A stretch of 34,683 nt of DNA from an uncultured Bacilli bacterium (GTDB taxonomy: Bacteria > Bacillota_I > Bacilli_A > RF39 > UBA660), in the NCBI GenBank assembly GCA_944350335.1, contig CALVOQ010000003.1:1-34683 (forward strand), written 5' to 3'. Made by a program: the position numbers and the translations under genes. Below the pieces are notes generated by a model that saw only the letters and a list, made by a program, of their open reading frames with translations, was not told the DNA's origin and searched no databases. Of the stretch, positions 2,297-16,611 are shown piece after piece. Within the stretch, counting starts at the first letter, position 1; the number at the start of each line of letters is the position of its first letter.

Positions 2297-2857
2297 TTAT
2301 CTTAATCCATTCTTTTTATATTCATCATGTAATTCTTTAAATCTATTAAAATGCACAACTTCCCTTTGTCTTAAAAAACTTAGTGGCGCTAATAAATCAG
2401 TATCATCCGTTAAATCCATAAGATTTTCATAAGTAGCTCTAGCCTTTTCCTCTGCAGCCATATCTTCTTGTAAATCTACTATAGCATCACCAGTAGATTG
2501 AAAATAAGCAGCAGTAAATGGAACACCATTAGCATCTACTGGATAAATACCTTTTTTATGTTGTACAAAGAATGTATCTAACCCAGCATCCTTTAATTCT
2601 TTTAAAGAAGCATCTTTAGTCAATTGATAAATCATAGTTTGTATCATTTCAATATGTCCAAACTCTTCCACAGCTATATCTGTGAGTAATGCTTTACCTT
2701 TTGCATCAGGCATAGTATATCTTTGGCAAAAATACCTTAGCGATGCGCTAAGTTCACTATCCGGTCCACCCAACTGAGCCATAAGTAACTTAGCCATGCG
2801 TAAATCTTTTTTTCTTATATTAATTGGATATTCTAACATTTTTTCATATTTAAACAT
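2297..2857 (-). CDS. cotJC: Spore coat protein CotJC (manganese catalase family)
   Basis: YEK.LEYPINI, QLGGPDSEL, DIAVEEFGHIE, EDMAAEEKAR, FLRQREVVH..RF; directly downstream of the cotJB-like gene. Confidence 0.9.
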   Translation of the reverse strand: MFKYEKMLEYPINIRKKDLRMAKLLMAQLGGPDSELSASLRYFCQRYTMPDAKGKALLTDIAVEEFGHIEMIQTMIYQLTKDASLKELKDAGLDTFFVQHKKGIYPVDANGVPFTAAYFQSTGDAIVDLQEDMAAEEKARATYENLMDLTDDTDLLAPLSFLRQREVVHFNRFKELHDEYKKNGLR

Positions 2858-2858
2858 T

Positions 2859-3386
2859 TTAATTACCCCCTTTATCCCAAGGCCATGGATTCATGTACCA
2901 ATTATATTTATCTCCCATCACAGAAAATGAACATAAAGGTCCATATTTTTTTTCATAAGTTTCTTTAATTGCTTCTAATTCTTTACTATAAGATCTATAC
3001 TTTTCAAACATTTCCATATCAGATGGGTACACATCCAAATACAAATTCAAATCTTTTATTGCAAATGTCAACTCCTGTATTTTAAGAAGCATTTCATCTC
3101 TTTCACCTTTCACAACAACTTTATAAATATGACTTTTATAAGGATCGTATATATTCTTAAACATTCCACCTTTATTCAAACCATCTTTAGGTATACTTAG
3201 TTCATTTGACATATTTTCTCTATAATTATTAATATTTATATTATTTATGTCATATATTTTGTTATTTTTAAAATGATATACTTCATGATTATTGATTTCA
3301 TTATAATCTTTATCTTCAACTTTTAAATAATTATTTGTCTCTTCCCCAACATAATCCAAATTATTATCTCTTTCATCAAAATACAT
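2859..3386 (-). CDS. cotJB: Spore coat protein CotJB with N-terminal CotJA-like segment
   Basis: CotJB motifs DLNLYLDVYP, YEKKYGPL, W...PWPW; upstream GLNKGGMFKNIYDPY resembles CotJA; GGAGG RBS. Confidence 0.8.
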   Translation of the reverse strand: MYFDERDNNLDYVGEETNNYLKVEDKDYNEINNHEVYHFKNNKIYDINNININNYRENMSNELSIPKDGLNKGGMFKNIYDPYKSHIYKVVVKGERDEMLLKIQELTFAIKDLNLYLDVYPSDMEMFEKYRSYSKELEAIKETYEKKYGPLCSFSVMGDKYNWYMNPWPWDKGGN

Positions 3387-3525
3387 TTTTTTAAACCTCC
3401 CTAATGTATAGTATGATTAATTAAATACCAAGAAAAGGCATATGACTAATTTTTTATATGTAAAGGTTTAAAAATATATTGTCCAAGACATATTATTAAT
3501 GTTAAAATGTAATTATGGTGATTTT

Positions 3526-3975
3526 ATGGAATACAAAATAACAACAAATAGTGAAGAAGAAACAATCGAATTAGCGCAAAATATAGAAAGCGAGAAATTT
3601 CCAAATATGATAATATGTTTACAAGGTGATTTAGGTAGTGGCAAAACAGTTTTTACAAAAGCATTTGCCGCATCTATGGGCATAGAAGACAACATTACTT
3701 CTCCGACATTTACAATTATAAAAGAATACGATAGTGATATTAAATTATTCCATATGGATGTATATAGATTAAATGAAGTAAAAGAAGATATTGGTATATC
3801 AGAATACTTTAATAAAAAAGGTGTATGCATTATTGAATGGTCAGATTTAATTGAAGACATCTTACCAAAAAACAGGCTAGATATAAAAATAAACATAATT
3901 GATGAGAATACAAGAATCTTTAAAATAATTCCACATGGAACAAAATACGAAGATTTATGCGAAAGAGTGCTATAA
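3526..3975 (+). CDS. tsaE: tRNA threonylcarbamoyladenosine biosynthesis ATPase TsaE
   Basis: L.GDLGSGKT, ITSPTFTI, HMDVYRL, IIEW motifs; ATG 3526 behind GGTGA. Confidence 0.95.
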   Translation: MEYKITTNSEEETIELAQNIESEKFPNMIICLQGDLGSGKTVFTKAFAASMGIEDNITSPTFTIIKEYDSDIKLFHMDVYRLNEVKEDIGISEYFNKKGVCIIEWSDLIEDILPKNRLDIKINIIDENTRIFKIIPHGTKYEDLCERVL

Positions 3976-3981
3976 CTCTTT

Positions 3982-4938
3982 TTAATTTAAATCTTTTTTT
4001 AAAAATAATAAAGAAGAAATAACAAAACCCAATATAGCATACACAAATAACAATAAGTTTCCATTAAACAAAGATAAATTAGTGCCATACTGCATATTAA
4101 ACTCTACAAGACTTAACCTATCGTTAAATATAGTATAATCTAAATAGGGCAAAAAACTATACATTAAAAAACTTATATCAAAGTTTAATAACCACTGAAA
4201 AATAACTAAACCAAAAACATTTACAAAAAACATAAAACTTATTGAAAATACTTTATTAAATAGTGCCAAAGAAATAAAAAACGATAAAATACCTACAAAT
4301 ATGATTGGTAAAGAATTACAGATAAATTTTGTAAAAGTTAAATAATAATAATTTATATCTACAACTTTATCATTTAATACAACAGATTTAGTAATATATA
4401 ATAAATCAAACGACTTATCCACACAAATCATTGAAAGTGTGTATGAGATAAATAAAAATAAATTTATCAACAATACTAGCAACACTACAGTTAAAAAGAA
4501 AGCAAAATATATTTTAAATCTACTATACTTTTTTACTAAAAAATGTTTAATTGTACCACATTTGAATTCATTCATTAATAATGATGATCCAACAATTATA
4601 GATATTATAGACAAAAACACTTGAAATTGATAAATTGTATCAAAAGAATATAAATTATTAACAATTTCATAATTATTTAATTTTGTCGCTTTAATAACTT
4701 CATCAATATAATCTTCGTAAAGTTCTACATATCTATTATAATTTCTATTTGGATATAATTTTAAAAACTCTTCTTCATTTAATTTGGATTGAACGTTAAT
4801 AAGATTATTATCACTTTCATAATGGTTATAAGACAAAAAATTTACGACAAATGAAGCAATGAGTATTATTGCCAAAATTATAATAAAATAACTCTTTTTA
4901 ATTTCTCTAAAAAACAATAAGTTTACCAATTTTAGCAT
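3982..4938 (-). CDS. ABC-2-type transporter permease
   Basis: Multiple hydrophobic segments, EFK.GTIK..L....SR motif; overlaps the upstream ATPase gene. Confidence 0.8.
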   Translation of the reverse strand: MLKLVNLLFFREIKKSYFIIILAIILIASFVVNFLSYNHYESDNNLINVQSKLNEEEFLKLYPNRNYNRYVELYEDYIDEVIKATKLNNYEIVNNLYSFDTIYQFQVFLSIISIIVGSSLLMNEFKCGTIKHFLVKKYSRFKIYFAFFLTVVLLVLLINLFLFISYTLSMICVDKSFDLLYITKSVVLNDKVVDINYYYLTFTKFICNSLPIIFVGILSFFISLALFNKVFSISFMFFVNVFGLVIFQWLLNFDISFLMYSFLPYLDYTIFNDRLSLVEFNMQYGTNLSLFNGNLLLFVYAILGFVISSLLFLKKDLN

Positions 4939-5618
4939 ACATTTACCACACTTCCTATTACTTTTCCCTCCAAATCAGAAGAAAAATCCGAGTTATTTAT
5001 TATGTCAACAATTTCACCTTTTTTTATTAACATCAATTTGTCACAAATCTTATTTAATTCTTTTATATCATGTGATGAAATTATAATTGTTGTATCATTT
5101 ATAGATAATAATAATTTTCTTAAGTTAACTACACTTTTTATATCCAAAGCATTAAAAGGTTCATCTAAAATTAAAAAGTCTGGTTTATTCATCAAAGCTA
5201 TAATAATTCCTAATTTTTGTTTCATACCTAAAGAATACTTTTTAACTTTCTTATGCAAATCTAATTCAAACATATCTATTAATTTTTTTACATAATCATA
5301 GTCAAAATCACCATAAAATTTTGCCCAAAATTTTAAGTTTTTAATACCAGTCCAATTATAATAAAGATTTGGACTTTCAATTAAAAAACCAACATTATTT
5401 GGCAAAATTTTATATATTTTAGATTTTCCATCAAACAAAACCTCCCCATCAAAATTAACGAAGCCTAATATACATTTTAGTAATGTTGTTTTACCACTTC
5501 CGTTAAGCCCAATAATTCCTATAATATCACCTTTCTTTATGTTCATATTAATATTTTTTAATATAATATTATCTTTTACATTTTTATTTAATTTTTTTAT
5601 CTCTAAAAAATCATTCAT
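4932..5618 (-). CDS. ABC transporter ATP-binding protein (BcrA-like exporter)
   Basis: GLNGSGKTT, YSLGMKQKLG, LILDEP, ISSH; ATG 5618 behind GGGAGG. Confidence 0.9.
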   Translation of the reverse strand: MNDFLEIKKLNKNVKDNIILKNINMNIKKGDIIGIIGLNGSGKTTLLKCILGFVNFDGEVLFDGKSKIYKILPNNVGFLIESPNLYYNWTGIKNLKFWAKFYGDFDYDYVKKLIDMFELDLHKKVKKYSLGMKQKLGIIIALMNKPDFLILDEPFNALDIKSVVNLRKLLLSINDTTIIISSHDIKELNKICDKLMLIKKGEIVDIINNSDFSSDLEGKVIGSVVNVC

Positions 5619-5694
5619 AAATCCTCCCATTGAGCAAAATATAACACATACGTAGATAACTTACAAATCACTAAAATTCAATTTTATAACAAAA

Positions 5695-5729
5695 AAAATC
5701 AAATATTATTTATACAAATATTTGATTTT
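5695..5729 (-). terminator. Intrinsic terminator after glyA
   Basis: AAAATCAAATATT...AATATTTGATTTT inverted repeat with T-run on the minus strand. Confidence 0.55.
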
Positions 5730-5756
5730 AATACACTAAAATATTTCAATTTTTAA

Positions 5757-6977
5757 TTAGTTATACAATTTAAATTTTTTTAATAAATCTATAATATTAC
5801 TTCTTATATCAGTTAACACTTCATGATTGTCTTTATTTTTAAGCGCCTTAATTATATATTCGCCAATAAGTTCAAATTCCTTTTCCTTAAACCCTCTAGT
5901 AGTCATCGCTGGAGTGCCGAGTCTTATCCCACTAGTTTTAAAAGGGCTTTCGCTGTCAAAAGGAATACTATTTTTATTACATGTTATGTTAACACTTTCT
6001 AATATTTGTTCTGCTTCCTTACCATTAAGGTTAAAACTTGTTACATCAACCAAAATCAAATGATTATCCGTGCCACCTGTAATAACTCGTAATCCACCTT
6101 CTGAAATCTTTTTTGCTAATGCTTTGGCATTTTTTATAACTTGTTTTTGATAAACTTCAAAAGTTGGATCAAGTGCTTCTACAAAACATACAGCCTTCGC
6201 AGCAATAACATGCATCAAAGGCCCACCTTGAATGCCCGGAAAAACAATCTTATCAATTTTCTTTGATAATTCTTCATCATTGGTCAGAATTATTCCACCT
6301 CTTGGTCCTCTCAAAGTCTTATGAGTAGTACTAGTAACTATATCAGCATATTCACAAGGATTTGGGTGAAGTCCTGTTGCGACCAGCCCTGCGATATGCG
6401 CCATGTCAACCATCAAATATGCTCCAACTTTATCCGCTATTTCTCTAAAACGTTTAAAATCAATAATCCTAGAATAAGCACTAGCGCCAGCAATTATCAT
6501 CTTTGGTTTCTCTTCTAATGCTATTTTTTCTACTTCGTCATAATCTATAAGCTCCGTATCTTTATTAACACCATACGATATAACTGTGTAATCTAAACCA
6601 CTAAAATTAATGGGATGCCCATGAGTTAAGTGCCCACCAGCACTTAAATTCATTCCAAGTACTTTATCACCAATATTTAAAAGCGCTTTGTAAACAGCCA
6701 TATTAGCCGAACTCCCTGAATGAGGTTGAACATTAACATATTTAACATTGAATAATTTCTTTAATGTATCTCTAGCAATATTCTCTATTTCATCAACAAA
6801 TTCGCAACCACCATAATATCTTTTTGATGGATATCCCTCTGCATATTTATTGGTTAAAACGCTTCCTTGAGCCTTCATAACATTCAAAGAAACAAAGTTT
6901 TCCGAAGCAATTAACTCAACATTATTTTGTTGTCTATATAATTCGTTATCAATATTATCAAAAATCTCTTCTATCAT
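5757..6977 (-). CDS. glyA: Serine hydroxymethyltransferase
   Basis: [31 protein letters not shown]-lysine motif [12 protein letters not shown]. Confidence 0.98.
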
Positions 6978-6990
6978 ACAACACCCATCC

Positions 6991-7944
6991 TCAGCTTAAA
7001 ACAGCTCCTTCATCACTAATAACATCTTTAAAATATTCTTTAAACTTAACTAATTCTTTTTTCTTAACATCTTCATAAACATTTTTTGCGTTCTTAATTG
7101 CATTATACACGTGATGTATTTTTAAAACATTTAGATTTTCAAAAACAGCATTAGAAAAAGCATTACCTAATAGAGCTAAAGAAATATCTGGATACCTATT
7201 ACCAATTTCATATATACGTTTATATTCATCCGTCATTTGAACTAAAAATTCACAAATTCTTTGTTTAATATAATCAGTATATGTAACTTTCACACCAGTT
7301 TGTTGTTCAATTTTAGGCATTGTGCCTAATAAAATTTGTATAGTTTCTTCTTGCGTTGGTTCAGCAACATCTACTCTTTGAAAACGTCTTAAAAAAGCAC
7401 GATCTCTCAAAATATAATATTCATATTCTTCAGTAGTTGTTGCACCTATCATTTTAATGGTACCTCTATCTAATCCAGGTTTTAACATATTCGCAAAATC
7501 CACATTCAAATTTGTAGTATTTCTACTTACAAGTAAATGAACTTCATCAATAAAAAGAATTATATTAGATCTTTCTTTTAATTCATCGACTAGTAACTGT
7601 AACCGATTCTCATTCCTACCTTCACTAACTGCATTACCTAATAAACTAGTAATATTAACTTTTATCAACTCGTAGTTTTTTAAAGCATCAGGCACTTCCC
7701 CTTTTTGCATTCTATAACCCAAACCTTCAACAATAGCAGTTTTACCAATACCTGGTTTACCAGTAAGTAAAGCACTTTTTTCAGGAGTTAACAAAATTAG
7801 TATCATCTCATTAATTTCTTTGTCTCTTCCAATTGCTGGATTAGTAATATAAAACTTTTTACTTAAATTTTCGCCATAAGTCTCTAAAATACTAAACTTT
7901 TGTTTTGAATTATCAAAATTAACAACTTCCACATTATCATTCAT
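6991..7944 (-). CDS. Stand-alone ClpA/B/C first nucleotide-binding domain (AAA+ ATPase)
   Basis: [46 protein letters not shown]; no Clp N-domain and no second NBD. Confidence 0.85.
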
Positions 7945-10138: not shown

Positions 10139-10525
10139 ATGAGTTTATTGCCAGAAAGATTTTATCTTGATAACTTCTTTAATGATTTTCTAGATGAAAA
10201 AACAACAGCAATGAAATGCGATATCTACGAAAAAGATAACAATTATCACGTTGAAATGGATATCCCTGGTTTTAACAAAGAAGACATTTCAATAGATTTA
10301 AATGATGGTTACCTTACAGTAGAAGCAACTAAAGGCGAAGACAAAGAAGAAAAAGATAAAAATTACATCAGAAGAGAAAGATCTTATGGAAAAATTAAAA
10401 GACAATTTTATGTTGGCAATGTTGACGCAGACAAAACAAAAGCAGAGTTTCATAATGGAACACTAAAAATTATTATTCCAAAGATTACAGAAAAAGAAAC
10501 AAAAAAACTTATCAACATAGACTAA
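10139..10525 (+). CDS. Small heat shock protein (Hsp20/alpha-crystallin)
   Basis: DIYE......DIPG..KEDI, RRER.YG...R.F, A.F.NG.L.I..PK; upstream CIRCE. Confidence 0.95.
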   Translation: MSLLPERFYLDNFFNDFLDEKTTAMKCDIYEKDNNYHVEMDIPGFNKEDISIDLNDGYLTVEATKGEDKEEKDKNYIRRERSYGKIKRQFYVGNVDADKTKAEFHNGTLKIIIPKITEKETKKLINID

Positions 10526-10549
10526 AAAATGCCCGAACAAGGCATTTTT
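10525..10549. terminator. Bidirectional terminator hsp20/trxB
   Basis: AAAAATGCC-CGAACAA-GGCATTTTT between convergent genes. Confidence 0.7.
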
Positions 10550-11438
10550 ATTTATCTAAATATTTAAGTGCTTTAATCGCTGCAATAGTTCCATCGCTCA
10601 CAGCGGTAGTAACTTGTCTTACTTCCTTATCTCTGCAATCACCTGCGACAAAAATTCCTTCAATATTAGTTAATGTTTCGTTACTAAGATAATAATTATT
10701 GTTATTTGTTTCTATATCACATGTTATATTATTTTCTGGAACCATGCCAATAGCCAAAAATATTCCATCAAGCTTTAATAAAGTTTTTTCATTATTAACC
10801 TTTATTACAACACTTTCCAAAGTTTTATTGCCACAATACTCAGTAATAATGCTATTAAAAAGTACTTGGACGTTACTATTCGTCATCACTTTTTCTTTTA
10901 GACTATTTTCACATTTTAACTTGTTTCCACGACATATTAAGTATACTTTCTGGCACAAATTTGAAAGATATATCGCGTTTATCACTGCAGTATTTCCACC
11001 ACCAACGACAGCAACAGTTTTATTTTTATAAAATGAGCCATCACATGTAGTGCAAAAATGTATGCCAAAACCTATTAAATCATTTTCATTTTTTAAACCT
11101 AATAGCCTATGTTTAACACCCGTTGCAATAATTACAGCTTTAGCACTATAGACCGAATTATTAGTCGTTACTTTTTTTATTTTTCCGTTTTCTATAGAAA
11201 TAACTTCATCAATTTCTATATCAACACCTAATTTTTGAACTTGTTCATAAAATAAATCCGATAATTCACTACCACTTATTTGCTCATATCCAGGGTAGTT
11301 TTCTACCAATGGTGATGATGCAATTTGACCGCCTATACCTTCCTTTTCTAAAATTAATGTCTTAGCACCACCACGCGCTAAATAAATGCCAGCGGTTAAT
11401 CCAGCAGGCCCAGCACCGATAACAATTACATCATACAT
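10548..11438 (-). CDS. trxB: Thioredoxin reductase
   Basis: GAGPAG FAD motif, ENYPG, redox CTTCDG, GGGNTA, AGD; start overlaps the nrdD stop. Confidence 0.9.
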   Translation of the reverse strand: MYDVIVIGAGPAGLTAGIYLARGGAKTLILEKEGIGGQIASSPLVENYPGYEQISGSELSDLFYEQVQKLGVDIEIDEVISIENGKIKKVTTNNSVYSAKAVIIATGVKHRLLGLKNENDLIGFGIHFCTTCDGSFYKNKTVAVVGGGNTAVINAIYLSNLCQKVYLICRGNKLKCENSLKEKVMTNSNVQVLFNSIITEYCGNKTLESVVIKVNNEKTLLKLDGIFLAIGMVPENNITCDIETNNNNYYLSNETLTNIEGIFVAGDCRDKEVRQVTTAVSDGTIAAIKALKYLDK

Positions 11439-13773
11439 TACAAACCACTTTTTCGTTAATATACTTTTTGATTTCTGATATATTCTTTATTAATTCAACC
11501 TCTCCATTTTGAGCAATTACTAGACTAGGAGCTTGTTTTATTCCATATCTTTTAGTCAAATCGGCCTCTTTTTCAGCATCAATATACGTATAACTAACTT
11601 TAGCCTCGTCCAAAACTTTTTTTGCCATTTTACAATTAGGACAAGTTTTTGTACCAAACAACATAATTCCGTCTTTAGAATTCCCTACTGAATGCGGTTC
11701 TTTGGAGCAATTTAAATCATAAAGTTTGCGCATCTTGTATTCTTTAGCTTTACCATCATTCCAGTTTTTAACAGGCCTATAATATCCTGTAATTCTACTA
11801 TAAACTTCCGTTTCTTCATCACAAACTGGACACTTAAATATTTCACCTGCAAAATATCCATGTTTTTTACAAACTGAATAAGTTGGACTCAAAGTATAGT
11901 AAGGTAACTTATAATTCTCAGCAATTTTTCTAACTAAATTAGCTGCAGATTTCCAATCAGGAAGTCTTTCGCCCAAAAACGCATGGAAAACTGTACCTGA
12001 AGTATATAATGTTTGTAACTCATCTTGAATATCTAAAGCTTCAAAGATATCGCTTGTAAATCCAACTGGAAGATGTGAACTATTAGTATAATATGGTGTT
12101 TCATCATCCGACGCAGTAATTATATTAGGATATAAAGTCTTATCTTTTTTTGCTAAACGATATGATGTACTTTCAGCAGGAGTTGCCTCCAAATTATACA
12201 AGTCACCATATTCTTCTTGATAATCAGATAATTTTTCTCTCATAAAGTTTAATACATCTTTAGTAAACTTCTGAGCTTTTTCATGTGTCAAATCTTCTTT
12301 TATCCATTTTGCATTTAAACAAGCTTCATTCATTCCAACTAATCCAATAGTAGAGAAATGATTGCTAAATGTACCCAAATATCTTTTTGTATATGGATAT
12401 AATCCTTCTTCTAACAATTTAGAAATTACATTTCTTTTGACTTTCAAACTTCTAGCAGAAATATTCATCATTTTTTCTAATCTATCGTAGAAATCTTTTT
12501 CATCTTTTGCAAGATAAGCAATTCTTGGAATATTGATAGTTACAACACCTATTGATCCAGTTGATTCTCCACTTCCAAAATATCCACCAGATTTTTTACG
12601 CAATTCTCTTAAGTCCAATCTCAACCTACAGCACATACTTCTAACATCACTTGGCTCCATATCGCTGTTGATATAATTTGAAAAATAAGGTGTTCCATAT
12701 TTTGCAGTCATTTCAAATAATAATTTGTTGTTTTCTGTTTCGTTCCAATCAAAATTACTAGTTATAGAATATGTAGGGATAGGATATTGGAAACCTCTAC
12801 CATTCGCATCTCCTTCAATCATTATCTCAATAAATGCCTTGTTAACCATATCCATTTCTTTTTGACAATCTTTATATTTAAAATCAACTTCTTTACCACC
12901 AATTATACAATTTAGTTCTGCTAAATCATTTGGTACTACCCAGTCCAAAGTGATATTTGTAAAAGGTGCTTGAGTCCCCCATCTACTAGGAGTATTAACT
13001 CCATAAACAAATGATTGAATACATTGTTTAACTTCGTTTTGAGTTAAATTATCAATTTTAACAAAAGGCGCTAAATAGGTATCAAAAGAAGAAAATGCTT
13101 GAGCGCCAGCCCATTCGTTCTGCATTATACCTAAAAAGTTTACCATTTGATTACATAAAGTACTCAAATGTTTAGCAGGACTAGATGTGATTTTACCAGA
13201 AACACCACCCAAACCTTCTTGAATTAATTGTTTTAAACTCCACCCCGCACAATAACCTGTTAACATTGATAAATCATGTAAATGTATATCACAATTTCTA
13301 TGTGCATCAGCAACGTCTTTATCATAAACTTCACTTAACCAATAATTAGCTGTAATCGCACCAGAATTACTTAGTATTAATCCACCTACAGAATAAGTAA
13401 CTGTTGAATTCTCTTTAACCCTCCAATCAGTAACATTAAGATAACTATTAACTACATCTTTATAATCGAGAATTGTTGACTGCATTGCGCGCTGTTTCTC
13501 GTGAAGTTTACGATACAAAATATATGCTTTCGCAACATCTGCATATCCAGCTTGTGAAAGAACTCTTTCGGCACTATCTTGTATATCTTCAACATCAATA
13601 ATGTTATCCTTAACTTTACTTTCAAAATCAGCAGTAACTTTCAAAGATAAAAAATCTATAACATTTTCATCATAATTCTTATTCTCAGCTTCAAAAGCTT
13701 TCGTAATAGCATCCCCTATTTTTTTAATATCAAATGATACAATTTTACCATCTCTTTTTCTAACTTTATACAT
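11431..13773 (-). CDS. nrdD: Anaerobic (class III) ribonucleoside-triphosphate reductase with ATP-cone and C-terminal glutaredoxin/NrdH-like domain
   Basis: ATP-cone VRKRDG; finger loop SMCCRL; ATPAES; Zn site CKKHG...CPVC; glycyl radical motif SRITGYY; terminal TCPNC domain. Confidence 0.95.
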   Translation of the reverse strand: MYKVRKRDGKIVSFDIKKIGDAITKAFEAENKNYDENVIDFLSLKVTADFESKVKDNIIDVEDIQDSAERVLSQAGYADVAKAYILYRKLHEKQRAMQSTILDYKDVVNSYLNVTDWRVKENSTVTYSVGGLILSNSGAITANYWLSEVYDKDVADAHRNCDIHLHDLSMLTGYCAGWSLKQLIQEGLGGVSGKITSSPAKHLSTLCNQMVNFLGIMQNEWAGAQAFSSFDTYLAPFVKIDNLTQNEVKQCIQSFVYGVNTPSRWGTQAPFTNITLDWVVPNDLAELNCIIGGKEVDFKYKDCQKEMDMVNKAFIEIMIEGDANGRGFQYPIPTYSITSNFDWNETENNKLLFEMTAKYGTPYFSNYINSDMEPSDVRSMCCRLRLDLRELRKKSGGYFGSGESTGSIGVVTINIPRIAYLAKDEKDFYDRLEKMMNISARSLKVKRNVISKLLEEGLYPYTKRYLGTFSNHFSTIGLVGMNEACLNAKWIKEDLTHEKAQKFTKDVLNFMREKLSDYQEEYGDLYNLEATPAESTSYRLAKKDKTLYPNIITASDDETPYYTNSSHLPVGFTSDIFEALDIQDELQTLYTSGTVFHAFLGERLPDWKSAANLVRKIAENYKLPYYTLSPTYSVCKKHGYFAGEIFKCPVCDEETEVYSRITGYYRPVKNWNDGKAKEYKMRKLYDLNCSKEPHSVGNSKDGIMLFGTKTCPNCKMAKKVLDEAKVSYTYIDAEKEADLTKRYGIKQAPSLVIAQNGEVELIKNISEIKKYINEKVVCNV

Positions 13774-13800: not shown

Positions 13801-14484
13801 CTATATTCCTCTAACGATAACATTAGGAAATTTTTTATTTAATTTATTTACTAACTCAATAAGTTCAGATTTATCAAAACCATTTAACTTTTGATTCAAA
13901 ACATTAGAACTATTTTCAAAGTTCTGTATATAATATTTTGCATTTTTACCTAAATACTCACAAATGTTATTCAAAATCTTATAATTATGATATTCTTTAA
14001 CTATTGTTGTTCTAAACTCATAATCAATTCCAGATTTTTTTATATAGTCCACGCTTTCAATTATCTTATTATAATCGATATCAATTCCACTGACTAAGGA
14101 AAAATTTACCTTATCAGCTTTTATATCCATAGCAATATAATCAATCAATTTTTCATCAATAAGTTTTTTAAGAACATTTGGATTGTAACCATTCGTATCC
14201 AATTTAACCTTTAAGCCTAAGTCTTTTATACTTTTTATAAAAAACATTATATCTTTTTGCATCGTAGGCTCTCCACCAGTAATTACAACACCATCTAACA
14301 TTGACTTTCTCTTTTTCAAATAATCCATAACATCAGTTTGAGATATGTTTCCTTTTCCAAAAGTGATTAAATCACTATTATGACAAAATGGACATTTAAA
14401 ATTACAACCTTTAGTAAACACAATACATGCAATATGACCAGGATAATCAGTTAAAGTCAATTTTTCAAAACCACTAATTTCCAT
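13801..14484 (-). CDS. nrdG: Anaerobic RNR activating enzyme (radical SAM)
   Basis: CNFKCPFCHN, ITGGEPT, KLDTNG, EFRTT; adjacent to nrdD; ATG overlaps the upstream stop (TGATG). Confidence 0.93.
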   Translation of the reverse strand: MEISGFEKLTLTDYPGHIACIVFTKGCNFKCPFCHNSDLITFGKGNISQTDVMDYLKKRKSMLDGVVITGGEPTMQKDIMFFIKSIKDLGLKVKLDTNGYNPNVLKKLIDEKLIDYIAMDIKADKVNFSLVSGIDIDYNKIIESVDYIKKSGIDYEFRTTIVKEYHNYKILNNICEYLGKNAKYYIQNFENSSNVLNQKLNGFDKSELIELVNKLNKKFPNVIVRGI

Positions 14485-16436
14485 CACGTCACATCCTTAG
14501 TAATAAACTTTAAAAAACCTACATCACTATCAAATATATTAAAAATAAGTTCTTCTAATTTATTAACTGTCATATTTTTATTTACTTTTATTTCTAAAAT
14601 ACTACCACCACTTACTAATTTTTGAATTTCACCAATTAAACTATAATTGTTTTTAATTTCTGGCAAGTTACTGATTAAATCGTACATACATTTATTTTTA
14701 AGTTCTTTTCTATTTCCATAAATTGACTTATCCAAAGCAATTAATTCTTTAGAAGCCGCACTTTTATAAGGTTCATATAAATAAAAGTTTAATTTAGTTT
14801 CTTCTCTAAAGATCATACATTTTTTATTTAAAAACTTAAGTATACCTTTTAATAATTCATATTGCTTAGTAGAGTCTTTTTCTAATAACTGAACACACTC
14901 ATTTAAGCCAATCAGTCCTATTAATAAATTACCATTTTTAATTATCTTTCTTATTTTTTGTCCTCTTTCTAATCTATCATCACTCATAATATTGTTATTA
15001 AAAACAAATTCATAATTGTCTTTATTCTTATTTCCTATTGTTTCAAAACTTAATAGCAACTCACTTTTAACAATTTCAACAATAAAATCTAATTTATTAT
15101 AAAAATTTTTAATATTATCATTTTCAAACTCTAAACCAAGTCTGGCAAAATTAATATTTGTTAAAGCAACAACCATTCTACCTTCAGAACTACTAACATC
15201 TTCATTATTATTTTCGTAAATACGTACTCCATCTGAGAAATATTCAACCTCATTATTTCCTTTATTATATGAAGTTTTATTATTAGATACCATAACATTT
15301 TTATTATTAATAATTAACGAACATATTTCGCTCATATAACTCGCATTATCTTCATTTAGTTTAAAAATAACTATAACATTATTTAATCTACCTAACTCAT
15401 TTAATACTTCTAGCAATGTCTTATTAATACAATTTCCAATAGAACTATCATTTGTACCAAAACTAAACGAATAAGACTTATTAAACATTGAAAGATCTTC
15501 AAACATTTTCTTTAAATTATAATATAAGTCAGATTTACATTTTTCATAGGCATCTTTATAGGCACTATCAAAAATATTTTCAACTTGTTCAGACAACATA
15601 TAAATTGAATAATTTGACATATCAAACGTTATATCCTTTTCTTTGTTAATTAATTCAATAATTTTCTTCAAATTAATATATTTATCAAAACCTGAGACTT
15701 TTAAATAATTAGATAAATATTCAATATATAACAATTTAAACTTTTTAATAGAATAATTTTCTAATAATTTATCTAACGACGGAACATTGATTTCCCCACT
15801 TATTTCAGTAGATAAATCCTCTAACTTATAAACAACGTTTTCAAAACTATTATTCTCTAAAAAATTATTTAAATTTATATGAGTATTTGATAACCTACCT
15901 AAAGAAAAATCACACATATCGTTAATATAAATATTACCTTCGTCATGCTCCCTTAAAAACTTATTATCTATTATATATGACTTTGTAATTTCATTGACTA
16001 CCATCAAGCCATAATTCTTAACGATATCCTTAATTTTACATGAATTATCATTAAGCAAAATATTATCATCATTTATTTTTTCTATGGCCTTTAAGAACTT
16101 ATGTTGTTGTTTCTGAGTAAAAATTTTTCTACTAGCAGCTCTCTTTTTTCTATATTCACTAAATGCATTGTACACTTCTTTAAAGTTACTTTCTTCCAAT
16201 TTTGATTCAATTATATCCTGTATGTCTTCAACATTTATTGTTTTTCTGTTAGCATAATTTATTTCAATATACTTTAGTACGTTTTCATATATTTTATTAA
16301 TCTTTGTTTCTTCACTATTATCATAAACACTATCAAAGGCATTCTTAATTGCAACAGCAATCTTATAACTATTAAAGTTTACTCTTTGACCACTTCTTTT
16401 TACAACAACAAGTTCATCAAAAACATCTTTTTGCAA
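14484..16436 (-). CDS. ATP-cone-containing degenerate NrdD paralogue (predicted catalytically inactive)
   Basis: Intact ATP-cone VVKRSG...VEDIQD; barrel motifs NINFARLG and IGLIGLNEC; no finger-loop Cys, no Zn site, no glycyl-radical motif; TTG start behind GGAGGTG. Confidence 0.8.
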   Translation of the reverse strand: MQKDVFDELVVVKRSGQRVNFNSYKIAVAIKNAFDSVYDNSEETKINKIYENVLKYIEINYANRKTINVEDIQDIIESKLEESNFKEVYNAFSEYRKKRAASRKIFTQKQQHKFLKAIEKINDDNILLNDNSCKIKDIVKNYGLMVVNEITKSYIIDNKFLREHDEGNIYINDMCDFSLGRLSNTHINLNNFLENNSFENVVYKLEDLSTEISGEINVPSLDKLLENYSIKKFKLLYIEYLSNYLKVSGFDKYINLKKIIELINKEKDITFDMSNYSIYMLSEQVENIFDSAYKDAYEKCKSDLYYNLKKMFEDLSMFNKSYSFSFGTNDSSIGNCINKTLLEVLNELGRLNNVIVIFKLNEDNASYMSEICSLIINNKNVMVSNNKTSYNKGNNEVEYFSDGVRIYENNNEDVSSSEGRMVVALTNINFARLGLEFENDNIKNFYNKLDFIVEIVKSELLLSFETIGNKNKDNYEFVFNNNIMSDDRLERGQKIRKIIKNGNLLIGLIGLNECVQLLEKDSTKQYELLKGILKFLNKKCMIFREETKLNFYLYEPYKSAASKELIALDKSIYGNRKELKNKCMYDLISNLPEIKNNYSLIGEIQKLVSGGSILEIKVNKNMTVNKLEELIFNIFDSDVGFLKFITKDVT

Positions 16437-16464
16437 TTAATCACCTCCTATGTTGACTAGATTA

Positions 16465-16493
16465 ATAGTACTAAATATATATACTTATGTCAA
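16465..16493 (-). promoter_or_regulatory. sigma-A-type promoter of the nrd operon
   Basis: TTGACA-17 nt-TACTAT on the minus strand. Confidence 0.75.
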
Positions 16494-16581
16494 TGTTTTT
16501 TTTATCAAAAAAAACAAAAAAAATTAAAACGTATTTTTTAAAAAAAGGTTTTTTGCCAAAAAAAACATAGTTTTTCAAACA

Positions 16582-16611
16582 AAAAAGTCAATTAAATTAA
16601 ATTGACTTTTT
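16582..16611 (-). terminator. Intrinsic terminator after the acyl-CoA ligase gene
   Basis: AAAAAGTCAAT-8-ATTGACTTTTT inverted repeat. Confidence 0.7.

Follow-up and report, generated by a model that had tools for sequence, protein, structure and literature searches.

What does a cell do with an apparently inactive ribonucleotide reductase (RNR) subunit encoded at the head of its only RNR operon? This question is raised by a stretch of 34,683 nucleotides (nt), hereafter the window, which comprises positions 1 to 34,683 of contig CALVOQ010000003.1 (assembly GCA_944350335.1) from an uncultured Bacilli bacterium of the RF39 lineage. Its minus strand carries, at 14484..16436, an intact open reading frame (ORF) with a TTG start, whose product of 650 amino acids (aa), here called pseudo-NrdD, appears to be a catalytically dead paralogue of NrdD, the class III RNR. 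Class III RNR requires a thiyl cysteine and a glycyl radical, and ATP-cones sense ATP and dATP and drive oligomer changes. Our analyses make it highly probable that pseudo-NrdD is a full-length, folded NrdD paralogue unable to reduce ribonucleotides, kept under purifying selection as the product of the first gene of a conserved operon and descended from the resident formate-type (MGCR) NrdD. Its role is most likely that of a regulatory or scaffolding partner, not of an enzyme.

Conserved fold and loss of catalytic residues

The initial annotation, made from the sequence alone, had described an uninterrupted 650-aa ORF with its own promoter, ribosome-binding site and junction with nrdG, and had quoted a series of NrdD-like motifs; on reading the sequence we located all of these on the minus strand. 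Specifically, the translation contains HDEGNIYIND, SFSFGTNDSSIG, EGRMVVALTNINFARLG, GNLLIGLIGLNE and EVEYFSDGVR, together with a C-terminal VGFLKF-ITKDVT. The proposed well-formed ATP-cone and NrdD barrel were borne out by profile searches. The cone (residues 10-100; 16137..16409, minus strand), which is the most conserved part of the pseudo-NrdD family, matched Pfam PF03477 with 58.4 bits, and the degenerate ten-stranded barrel core (residues 145-644; 14505..16004, minus strand) matched positions 19-504 of the 562-position NRDD model (PF13597) with 101.5 bits against a cut-off of 26.2, compared with 641.4 bits across positions 1-562 for the neighbouring active NrdD. Pseudo-NrdD fell below every NCBIfam equivalog cut-off, the best match being PRK07111 (143.4 versus 764); the NrdR family TIGR00244 was absent among the eight NCBIfam families matched at E values up to 0.01, and Pfam recognized the ATP-cone and NRDD only. 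The cone is 34% and a core segment about 21% identical to the neighbouring active NrdD.

A structure predicted with AlphaFold2 (AF2) had a mean predicted local distance difference test score (pLDDT) of 86.1 and a predicted template modelling score (pTM) of 0.75, and in a Foldseek search it matched NrdD structures with an E value of 1.7e-28. The best structural match was the dATP-bound Prevotella copri NrdD dimer 8p27_A, with model residues 133-646 superposing on residues 120-675 (VIA-align Z 39.9; root-mean-square deviation 2.8 A over 485 residues). The glycyl-radical domain of dATP-inhibited P. copri NrdD (PcNrdD) is described as disordered after residue 676 (PMC11226230). Since pseudo-NrdD ends at the same last barrel strand as the ordered part of PcNrdD, it corresponds to the cone and core of an NrdD minus the radical domain.

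We then compared conservation in an alignment of 27 active NrdDs of four types with 31 pseudo-family members. Among the 66 columns at least 90% conserved in the active enzymes, the pseudo family has lost 32 and keeps 28; the ATP-cone accounts for the first 17 of the 66, with 16 of these 17 retained. The beta-A Cys has been replaced by Ser, Asn or His, and the finger-loop Met-x-Cys-Arg has become Phe-x-Asp/Asn/Ser-Gly, with Met changed to Phe in 31 of 31 rows. At the thiyl Cys column, Asp occurs in 15 rows, Asn in 12 and Ser in four; in the window protein, the finger loop EVEYFSDGVR (residues 396-405; 15222..15251, minus strand) places Asp402 at this position and Phe400 at that of the Met. In addition, the TPAE and YTNS motifs are gone from the family, and the Gln of the specificity-site GxQ motif, equivalent to Gln225 of StNrdD and Gln114 of T4 NrdD and described as contacting the effector base (PMC12662201), has become Ile. 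The Zn ribbon (CxxC...CxxC) and the glycyl-radical motif RxxG[YF] are represented by gaps in all pseudo rows, the C-terminus lying at D-[IV]-G-F-x-K-F in the last barrel strand, upstream of both. The alignment thus agrees with the earlier suggestion that the finger loop has no Cys and that the protein stops before the Zn site and RxxGY. A Cys at the thiyl column was present in none of 76 orthologous ORFs of other species, all of which stop before the Zn ribbon, and one family member, P0058, has no Cys anywhere.

The nearest active relatives of pseudo-NrdD are split enzymes, each with a large ORF and a glycyl-radical ORF of 52-63 aa, and pseudo-NrdD might accordingly be thought to be the large subunit of an active split NrdD, taking a glycyl-radical peptide in trans as in sister genera. 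We built a glycyl-radical-domain profile from eight small split ORFs and eight C-terminal domains and ran it against 9070 six-frame segments of the source genome. No separate glycyl-radical peptide was found in this 92%-complete genome, the profile matching only the C-terminus of the real NrdD (E value 1.2e-17; next 0.22); a search of the genome itself with a single 59-aa glycyl-radical ORF gave no match, not even to the real NrdD, and is therefore uninformative. The large-subunit reading was rejected because the catalytic Cys residues, both thiyl and beta-A, are absent, as is the Zn ribbon, and because no glycyl-radical ORF was detected. To rescue it, the peptide would have to lie in the missing 8% of the genome and some other residue would have to carry the radical, a combination that we regard as having next to no chance.

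Split class III RNRs as such were observed in genomes G006, G007, G008, G011, G014, G015, G022 and G024 (for example, L044:1060-3372, 3392-3571 and 3573-4133), where a YMGCR ORF of 757-774 aa ending just past the Zn ribbon is followed by a separate FERIRRITGYL ORF of 52-63 aa and then by an NrdG of 182-188 aa; the arrangement is reminiscent of an NrdD carrying its own detachable radical domain, much like GrcA. In a different set of proteins (P0135-P0137, P0140 and P0141; 781-792 aa), NrdD is fused to NrdG and the catalytic Cys residues are retained; neither a Pfam ATP-cone nor, in the alignment, a glycyl-radical motif was seen in them, and they may represent another split or rearranged architecture.

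Origin of the pseudo-NrdD family

In a maximum-likelihood tree, the pseudo family formed one clade (Shimodaira-Hasegawa-like approximate likelihood ratio test [SH-aLRT] support 100) nested among active YMGCR-type NrdDs of the same bacterial family; the clade was sister to a split NrdD (support 95) and had a long stem and long terminal branches. The YMGCR type is the only NrdD in several relatives, and genomes bearing the pseudo gene almost always have an NrdD of the MCCR::Grx type instead. It had been proposed from the motifs that the protein is closer to the YMGCR type than to its MCCR neighbour and possibly a displaced gene; the tree placement and the many YMGCR-only relatives point the same way. 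These data fit a history in which pseudo-nrdD would be the displaced resident YMGCR-type gene, subsequently repurposed.

At two loci, L099 and L093, pseudo-nrdD still occurs together with the gene for an active MGCR-type NrdD, so that displacement may instead have been preceded by a duplication, or the catalytic cassette may have been exchanged later. At L099, pseudo-nrdD (2785-4812) is followed by an unsplit active MGCR-type NrdD gene (4833-7181; 782 aa) and then by a small-type NrdG gene; at L093, the contig ends inside the active NrdD gene that follows pseudo-nrdD. Both loci are without the usual nrdG-nrdD::grx-trxR cassette.

Distribution, gene order and selection

A word-indexed protein search listed 120 clusters with 43-100% identity. 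Among the clusters listed, 119 encode proteins of 627-685 aa and one is a 371-aa fragment, and all share the C-terminal motif. Public names were attached to six of the 120, in each case "anaerobic ribonucleoside-triphosphate reductase", and RNR inventories that follow such names therefore over-count active enzymes. A search of an exhaustive 50%-identity protein library returned 113 representatives at E <= 1e-30. Among 144 listed matches new to the library search, 80 are 560-720 aa long and 78 of these are without the thiyl Cys, the two Cys-bearing exceptions resembling active NrdDs or NrdD fragments; the pseudo family comprises at least 78 Cys-less representatives at 50% identity. A relative is encoded in 254 genomes of a species-representative collection, namely those of uncultured Bacilli, Mollicutes, Tenericutes and 'Clostridium sp. 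CAG' gut metagenome-assembled genomes. Of 201 genomes sampled evenly across the order, about 31 had a pseudo-sized ORF and about 99 had an active MGCR-type enzyme.

Gene order was analysed at 80 loci from the species-representative collection, three of which are cut by a contig end. Of the 77 complete copies, 76 are single intact ORFs, and nrdG lies directly downstream in 74 of the 76. The order pseudo-nrdD, nrdG, nrdD::grx, trxR was found in 61 (in one of them with trxR in two ORFs); the contig ends after pseudo-nrdD, nrdG and nrdD in 12 others and after pseudo-nrdD and nrdG in one, and at L093 and L099 the pseudo gene precedes the active MGCR-type NrdD gene. In 28 of the 76, the pseudo gene overlaps its downstream neighbour by 4 nt (stop-to-start distance -4 nt).

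In pairwise Nei-Gojobori comparisons within the genus, the ratio of nonsynonymous to synonymous substitution rates (dN/dS) was 0.089-0.190 for pseudo-nrdD, compared with 0.17-0.39 for nrdG, 0.15-0.20 for trxR and 0.04-0.06 for nrdD. Some features might nevertheless suggest a non-functional relic, that is, a pseudogene that has not yet decayed or a gene that persists solely through its polar effects on nrdG or its translational coupling to it: pseudo-NrdD evolves faster than its neighbours (mean pairwise distance 0.86, versus 0.61 for NrdG, 0.58 for TrxR and 0.20 for NrdD), one of the 77 complete copies (L062) is in two ORFs and three are shortened to 564-565 aa. This explanation is contradicted by the low dN/dS values, and also by the conservation of length and C-terminus in 119 of the 120 listed clusters, by the confident AF2 model and by retention of the gene in genomes of only 0.8-1.5 Mb, and we consider it very improbable. 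Four matches of the 201-genome sample had been flagged for an internal stop, which was rejected: the match had overrun the natural stop, and all four ORFs proved intact. Similarly, an insertion was rejected as the cause of matches of about 2.9 kb (for example, L069 and L089), in which the query cone also matches the cone of the downstream real NrdD. The comparisons indicate that pseudo-nrdD is a gene for a pseudoenzyme under selection, not a decaying pseudogene, which bears out the idea, first put forward on the basis of divergence in an intact frame, of selection as a non-catalytic protein. What might have spoken against that idea was not seen: the loop tip carries no Cys, no glycyl-radical partner was found in the 92%-complete genome, and the orthologues are neither sporadic nor broken.

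Shifted constraint and the ATP-cone

Column-identity profiles of 77 pseudo sequences and 13 active relatives showed opposite trends. The pseudo family had a mean column identity of 0.64-0.79 over residues 1-125 (cone and connector) and of 0.41-0.55 over most of the core, apart from conserved islands at residues 151-175 and 426-500, whereas the active relatives showed the reverse, with 0.7-0.9 in the core and 0.6-0.7 in the cone. A Pfam ATP-cone was present in all 35 pseudo-family members scanned. By alignment, the pseudo cone retains the equivalents of Lys7, Arg8, Tyr83, Arg87 and Arg91 of PcNrdD, residues that are described as holding two nucleotides (PMC11226230). Because the ATP-cone and connector are now the most conserved region, we infer that they are the working part of pseudo-NrdD and that they would bind ATP or dATP. 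The remodelled finger loop is itself conserved in the family, as E-Y-F-x-[DN]-G-x-R-I-F-E-N, which suggests new constraint and not drift.

A second inactive lineage fused to NrdG

Genome G036 (99% complete) contains, directly downstream of a D-type NrdD::Grx gene, a 908-aa ORF (L137:2874-5600) laid out as ATP-cone, NrdD core, Zn ribbon and NrdG domain. The beta-A Cys and the finger-loop Cys are missing (YGATRNR), and the radical Gly has changed to Asp (RRINDLL versus RRITGYL). The NrdG domain is intact, with CxxxCxxC and a TIGR02491 score of 135 bits (cut-off 126.1), and the only other activase-like gene in this genome adjoins a pyruvate formate-lyase (PFL) gene. These features are common to thirteen clusters of 892-931 aa (P0121-P0133), in which the best-conserved parts are the cone (0.83-0.88) and the NrdG domain (0.82-0.88). 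An AF2 model of the 908-aa fusion, made from 13 sequences, was too poor to show how the NrdG domain packs (pLDDT 63.5, pTM 0.41).

In the tree, the fusion lineage grouped with active Acholeplasma and Haploplasma NrdDs (support 99), apart from the 650-aa family, and a single clade of all dead forms was rejected by the approximately unbiased (AU) test (p = 5e-6, for a group defined after the tree had been seen). An inactivation of the fusion lineage independent of that of the 650-aa family is thus supported by the phylogeny. Active NrdD::NrdG fusions also exist, and such fusions are reported from eukaryotes (PMC3019208).

Other candidate NrdD derivatives were noted. In G017, MCCR-type nrdD-nrdG is directly preceded by a 526-aa ORF (L132:2737-4317) that has an ATP-cone (63.7 bits) and matches NRDD in fragments (121 bits); this may be another dead NrdD, either more reduced or of separate origin. 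ORFs that match NRDD weakly (20-29 bits) and are about 495-523 aa long adjoin radical S-adenosylmethionine (SAM) activase-like genes in G028 (L133:943-2514) and G037 (L134:1686-3170).

Proposed role of pseudo-NrdD

The initial annotation had offered a sensor, an inhibitor, a subunit or an NrdG partner as possible roles; the comparative data favour a role centred on the ATP-cone and linked to NrdG or NrdD. We interpret pseudo-NrdD as an accessory subunit of class III RNR that would sense nucleotides without being catalytic itself, with NrdG as its putative partner. In such a mechanism, the cone and connector would bind ATP or dATP, the activase NrdG would dock on the dead barrel as on a scaffold or pseudo-substrate, and installation of the glycyl radical on the active NrdD, or holoenzyme assembly, would thereby be coupled to the ATP/dATP ratio. 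NrdG is favoured as the partner because coupling to nrdG is near-universal and because an independent dead lineage is fused to NrdG. We give this NrdG-adaptor mechanism, which is based on gene order and on the independent fusion, somewhat less than an even chance. The wider proposal, that on two independent occasions a dead, cone-bearing NrdD was recruited by class III RNR systems as an activase partner, once translationally coupled and once fused, to gate radical installation by ATP/dATP, is more tentative still.

Several observations weigh against a nucleotide-sensing role tied to NrdG. In G012, the pseudo gene is unlinked from nrdG-nrdD-trxR, and at L093 and L099 it is the active MGCR-type NrdD gene, not nrdG, that follows. 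D-type operons without the pseudo gene exist (G031, G033 and G028), with an NrdG carrying the same tail at its C-terminus, so that NrdG2 needs no pseudo protein; this x-L/V-R-G-[IY] tail, considered as a pseudo-specific feature of NrdG, was rejected as such, since it tracks D-type NrdD with or without the pseudo gene. Binding of nucleotides by the pseudo cone would, moreover, follow from its conserved residues only. The real NrdD has a conserved ATP-cone of its own, and a second sensor is therefore not obviously needed. Finally, a mirror-tree analysis of 57 operons, which is crude, uses non-independent pairs and carries no significance test, gave a higher partial correlation of pseudo-NrdD with NrdD (0.46) than with NrdG (0.31).

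In a rival explanation, the dead paralogue hetero-oligomerizes with the active NrdD::Grx, through a cone-cone or a core dimer interface, and tunes or inhibits its activity according to ATP/dATP, in the way that yeast Rnr4 partners Rnr2. An active NrdD is present at the same loci, a D-type enzyme being counted in 74 of the 76 (one of which ends after nrdG) and an MGCR-type enzyme in L093 and L099; both proteins have intact cones, and the crude mirror-tree correlation is highest with NrdD. Class III cones are described as pairing and mediating dATP-dependent tetramers, as documented for homo-oligomers (PMC11226230, PMC12662201), and glycyl radical enzymes (GREs) are reported to carry fewer than two radicals per dimer (PMC12662201), so that a half-dead dimer could in principle work. 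With a core only about 21% identical to that of the D-type enzyme and the dimer-interface specificity Gln lost, however, a canonical core heterodimer is doubtful, and the dead NrdD::NrdG fusion would be left unexplained. We regard partnership with NrdD as possible, at roughly three chances in ten; it and the NrdG-adaptor model are close in likelihood.

Alternatively, pseudo-NrdD could act without direct contact with NrdD or NrdG, as a free-standing nucleotide sensor or buffer that sequesters dATP or ATP, or in a new function with another ligand in the remodelled barrel. The family-specific conservation that has newly arisen in the finger loop and at residues 455-515 would suit such a role, as would the G012 copy that stands alone; the near-universal operon linkage to nrdG and nrdD speaks against it, and no additional Pfam domain was found in any of the 35 members scanned. 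We consider a free-standing function unlikely, and the accessory subunit associated with NrdG remains our preferred reading.

Layout of the operon

Upstream of the pseudo gene, a Shine-Dalgarno sequence, GGAGGTG (16442..16448, minus strand), lies five bases 5' of the TTG start and is preceded by a promoter-like TTGACA-17-TACTAT (16465..16493, minus strand), identified by consensus match only. The latter is the top-scoring promoter-like site of the region (10/12) and sits in a 201-nt spacer downstream of an acyl-CoA-synthetase-like gene; the AT-rich region shows no overall enrichment of such hexamers (53 observed versus 43.5 +/- 7.5 in shuffles). An AT-rich hairpin with a T-run at 16581-16610 (minus strand), directly 3' of the acyl-CoA-synthetase-like gene, was missed by the terminator scan because its stem has few G-C pairs; it is probably the terminator of that gene and would insulate the RNR operon.

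The TGA stop of pseudo-nrdD overlaps the start of nrdG, as GTGA or TGATG. The nrdG gene (13801..14487, minus strand) encodes a radical SAM activase of the NrdG2 type (TIGR02495, 214.4 bits versus a cut-off of 131.15). It is followed by the gene for the active NrdD (11431..13773, minus strand; PRK08270 1139.3 bits), which has an MCCR finger loop, RITGY and a C-terminal glutaredoxin-like (Grx) domain (PF00462, residues 703-754), and by the last gene of the operon, for a thioredoxin-reductase-like (TrxR) flavoprotein (10548..11438, minus strand), which matched TIGR01292 with 322.6 bits, just below the cut-off of 343.45, and Pyr_redox_2 with 165.5 bits. The active nrdD gene overlaps the trxR-like gene. 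The C-terminal Grx-like domain and the overlapping trxR-like gene suggest a self-contained electron path from NADPH through TrxR and the Grx domain to NrdD, in place of formate. This pairing of a Grx-bearing NrdD with TrxR recurs at 61 of the 80 loci. A terminator-like hairpin (10525..10549, listed on the plus strand), with A and T runs flanking the stem on both sides, marks the 3' end of the operon and is shared with a convergent hsp20-like gene.

The source genome (0.82 Mb, 92% complete) has only two NRDD matches, both at this locus. No class I or II large-subunit domain was found in this 92%-complete genome, leaving class III as its only RNR.

Comparison with known systems

Ribonucleotide reductase is among the best-studied allosteric enzymes. 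What appears to be new here is an NrdD paralogue that bears an ATP-cone but is not catalytic, and that would serve as an accessory protein encoded in the RNR operon itself; the family is present in about 250 species-level genomes of gut Bacilli with small genomes and class III as their only RNR. If the proposed role is correct, it would represent allosteric control of activation, not of turnover, which is not known from any ribonucleotide reductase. Two independent dead lineages that keep the cone provide a natural experiment on an ATP-cone uncoupled from catalysis, and nucleotide-gated activation or assembly is a concrete hypothesis that can be tested with four recombinant proteins. In the available text of a finger-loop survey, only MGCR and MCCR motifs are described among 1,375 class III sequences (PMC9669993), and that of a 2026 GRE review gives accessory subunits only for benzylsuccinate synthase (BSS), (1-methylalkyl)succinate synthase (MASS) and 4-hydroxyphenylacetate decarboxylase (HPAD) (PMC13450708). 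No description of a non-catalytic class III RNR subunit was found in a full-text literature search, as far as the text of the sources was accessible; supplements, which lay outside the search, might list Cys-less sequences.

Pseudo-NrdD is most similar to the MGCR (formate) NrdDs, such as those of P. copri (8P27, 8P23) and T4 (1H7B), with which it shares the N-terminal ATP-cone, the connector and the ten-stranded alpha/beta barrel; its fold matches 1h7b with Z 37.2, a little below the value for 8p27_A, and its family is nested in this subclass. Unlike these enzymes, it is without the thiyl and beta-A Cys residues, the finger-loop Met, the specificity Gln, TPAE, YTNS, the Zn ribbon and the glycyl-radical domain. 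The dead NrdD::NrdG fusions of Acholeplasmataceae-like genomes are likewise MGCR-derived, with the cone among their best-conserved parts, a link to NrdG and, in G036, a D-type NrdD::Grx neighbour, but they are of independent origin, still have a Zn ribbon and what is left of the radical motif, with Gly changed to Asp, and contain a fused NrdG of the TIGR02491 type, in contrast to the translationally coupled TIGR02495 type of pseudo-nrdD.

Yeast Rnr4 is a dead class Ia beta paralogue that pairs with Rnr2 and helps cofactor assembly in the beta-beta' heterodimer. It resembles pseudo-NrdD in being a dead RNR-subunit paralogue that has been kept to assist the active enzyme, as a helper or an obligatory partner, but it belongs to another subunit and RNR class, and the conserved module of pseudo-NrdD is the allosteric ATP-cone, its partner being as yet only presumptive. 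NrdR, the nrd repressor, also senses ATP/dATP with an ATP-cone that is not part of an enzyme; unlike pseudo-NrdD, it is about 150 aa long, has a Zn-ribbon DNA-binding domain and has no barrel. NrdR was above cut-off in only one of 41 related genomes, irrespective of the pseudo gene, so that its presence does not separate genomes with that gene from those without. Among GREs, the beta and gamma subunits of BSS, the gamma subunit of HPAD and the spare part GrcA are described as non-catalytic partners that modulate activation or activity (PMC13450708; PMC12590467). These partners differ from pseudo-NrdD in being small and in having a fold unrelated to that of the catalytic subunit. GrcA is the mirror image of pseudo-NrdD: GrcA is a glycyl-radical domain without a barrel, and pseudo-NrdD is a barrel without a glycyl-radical domain.

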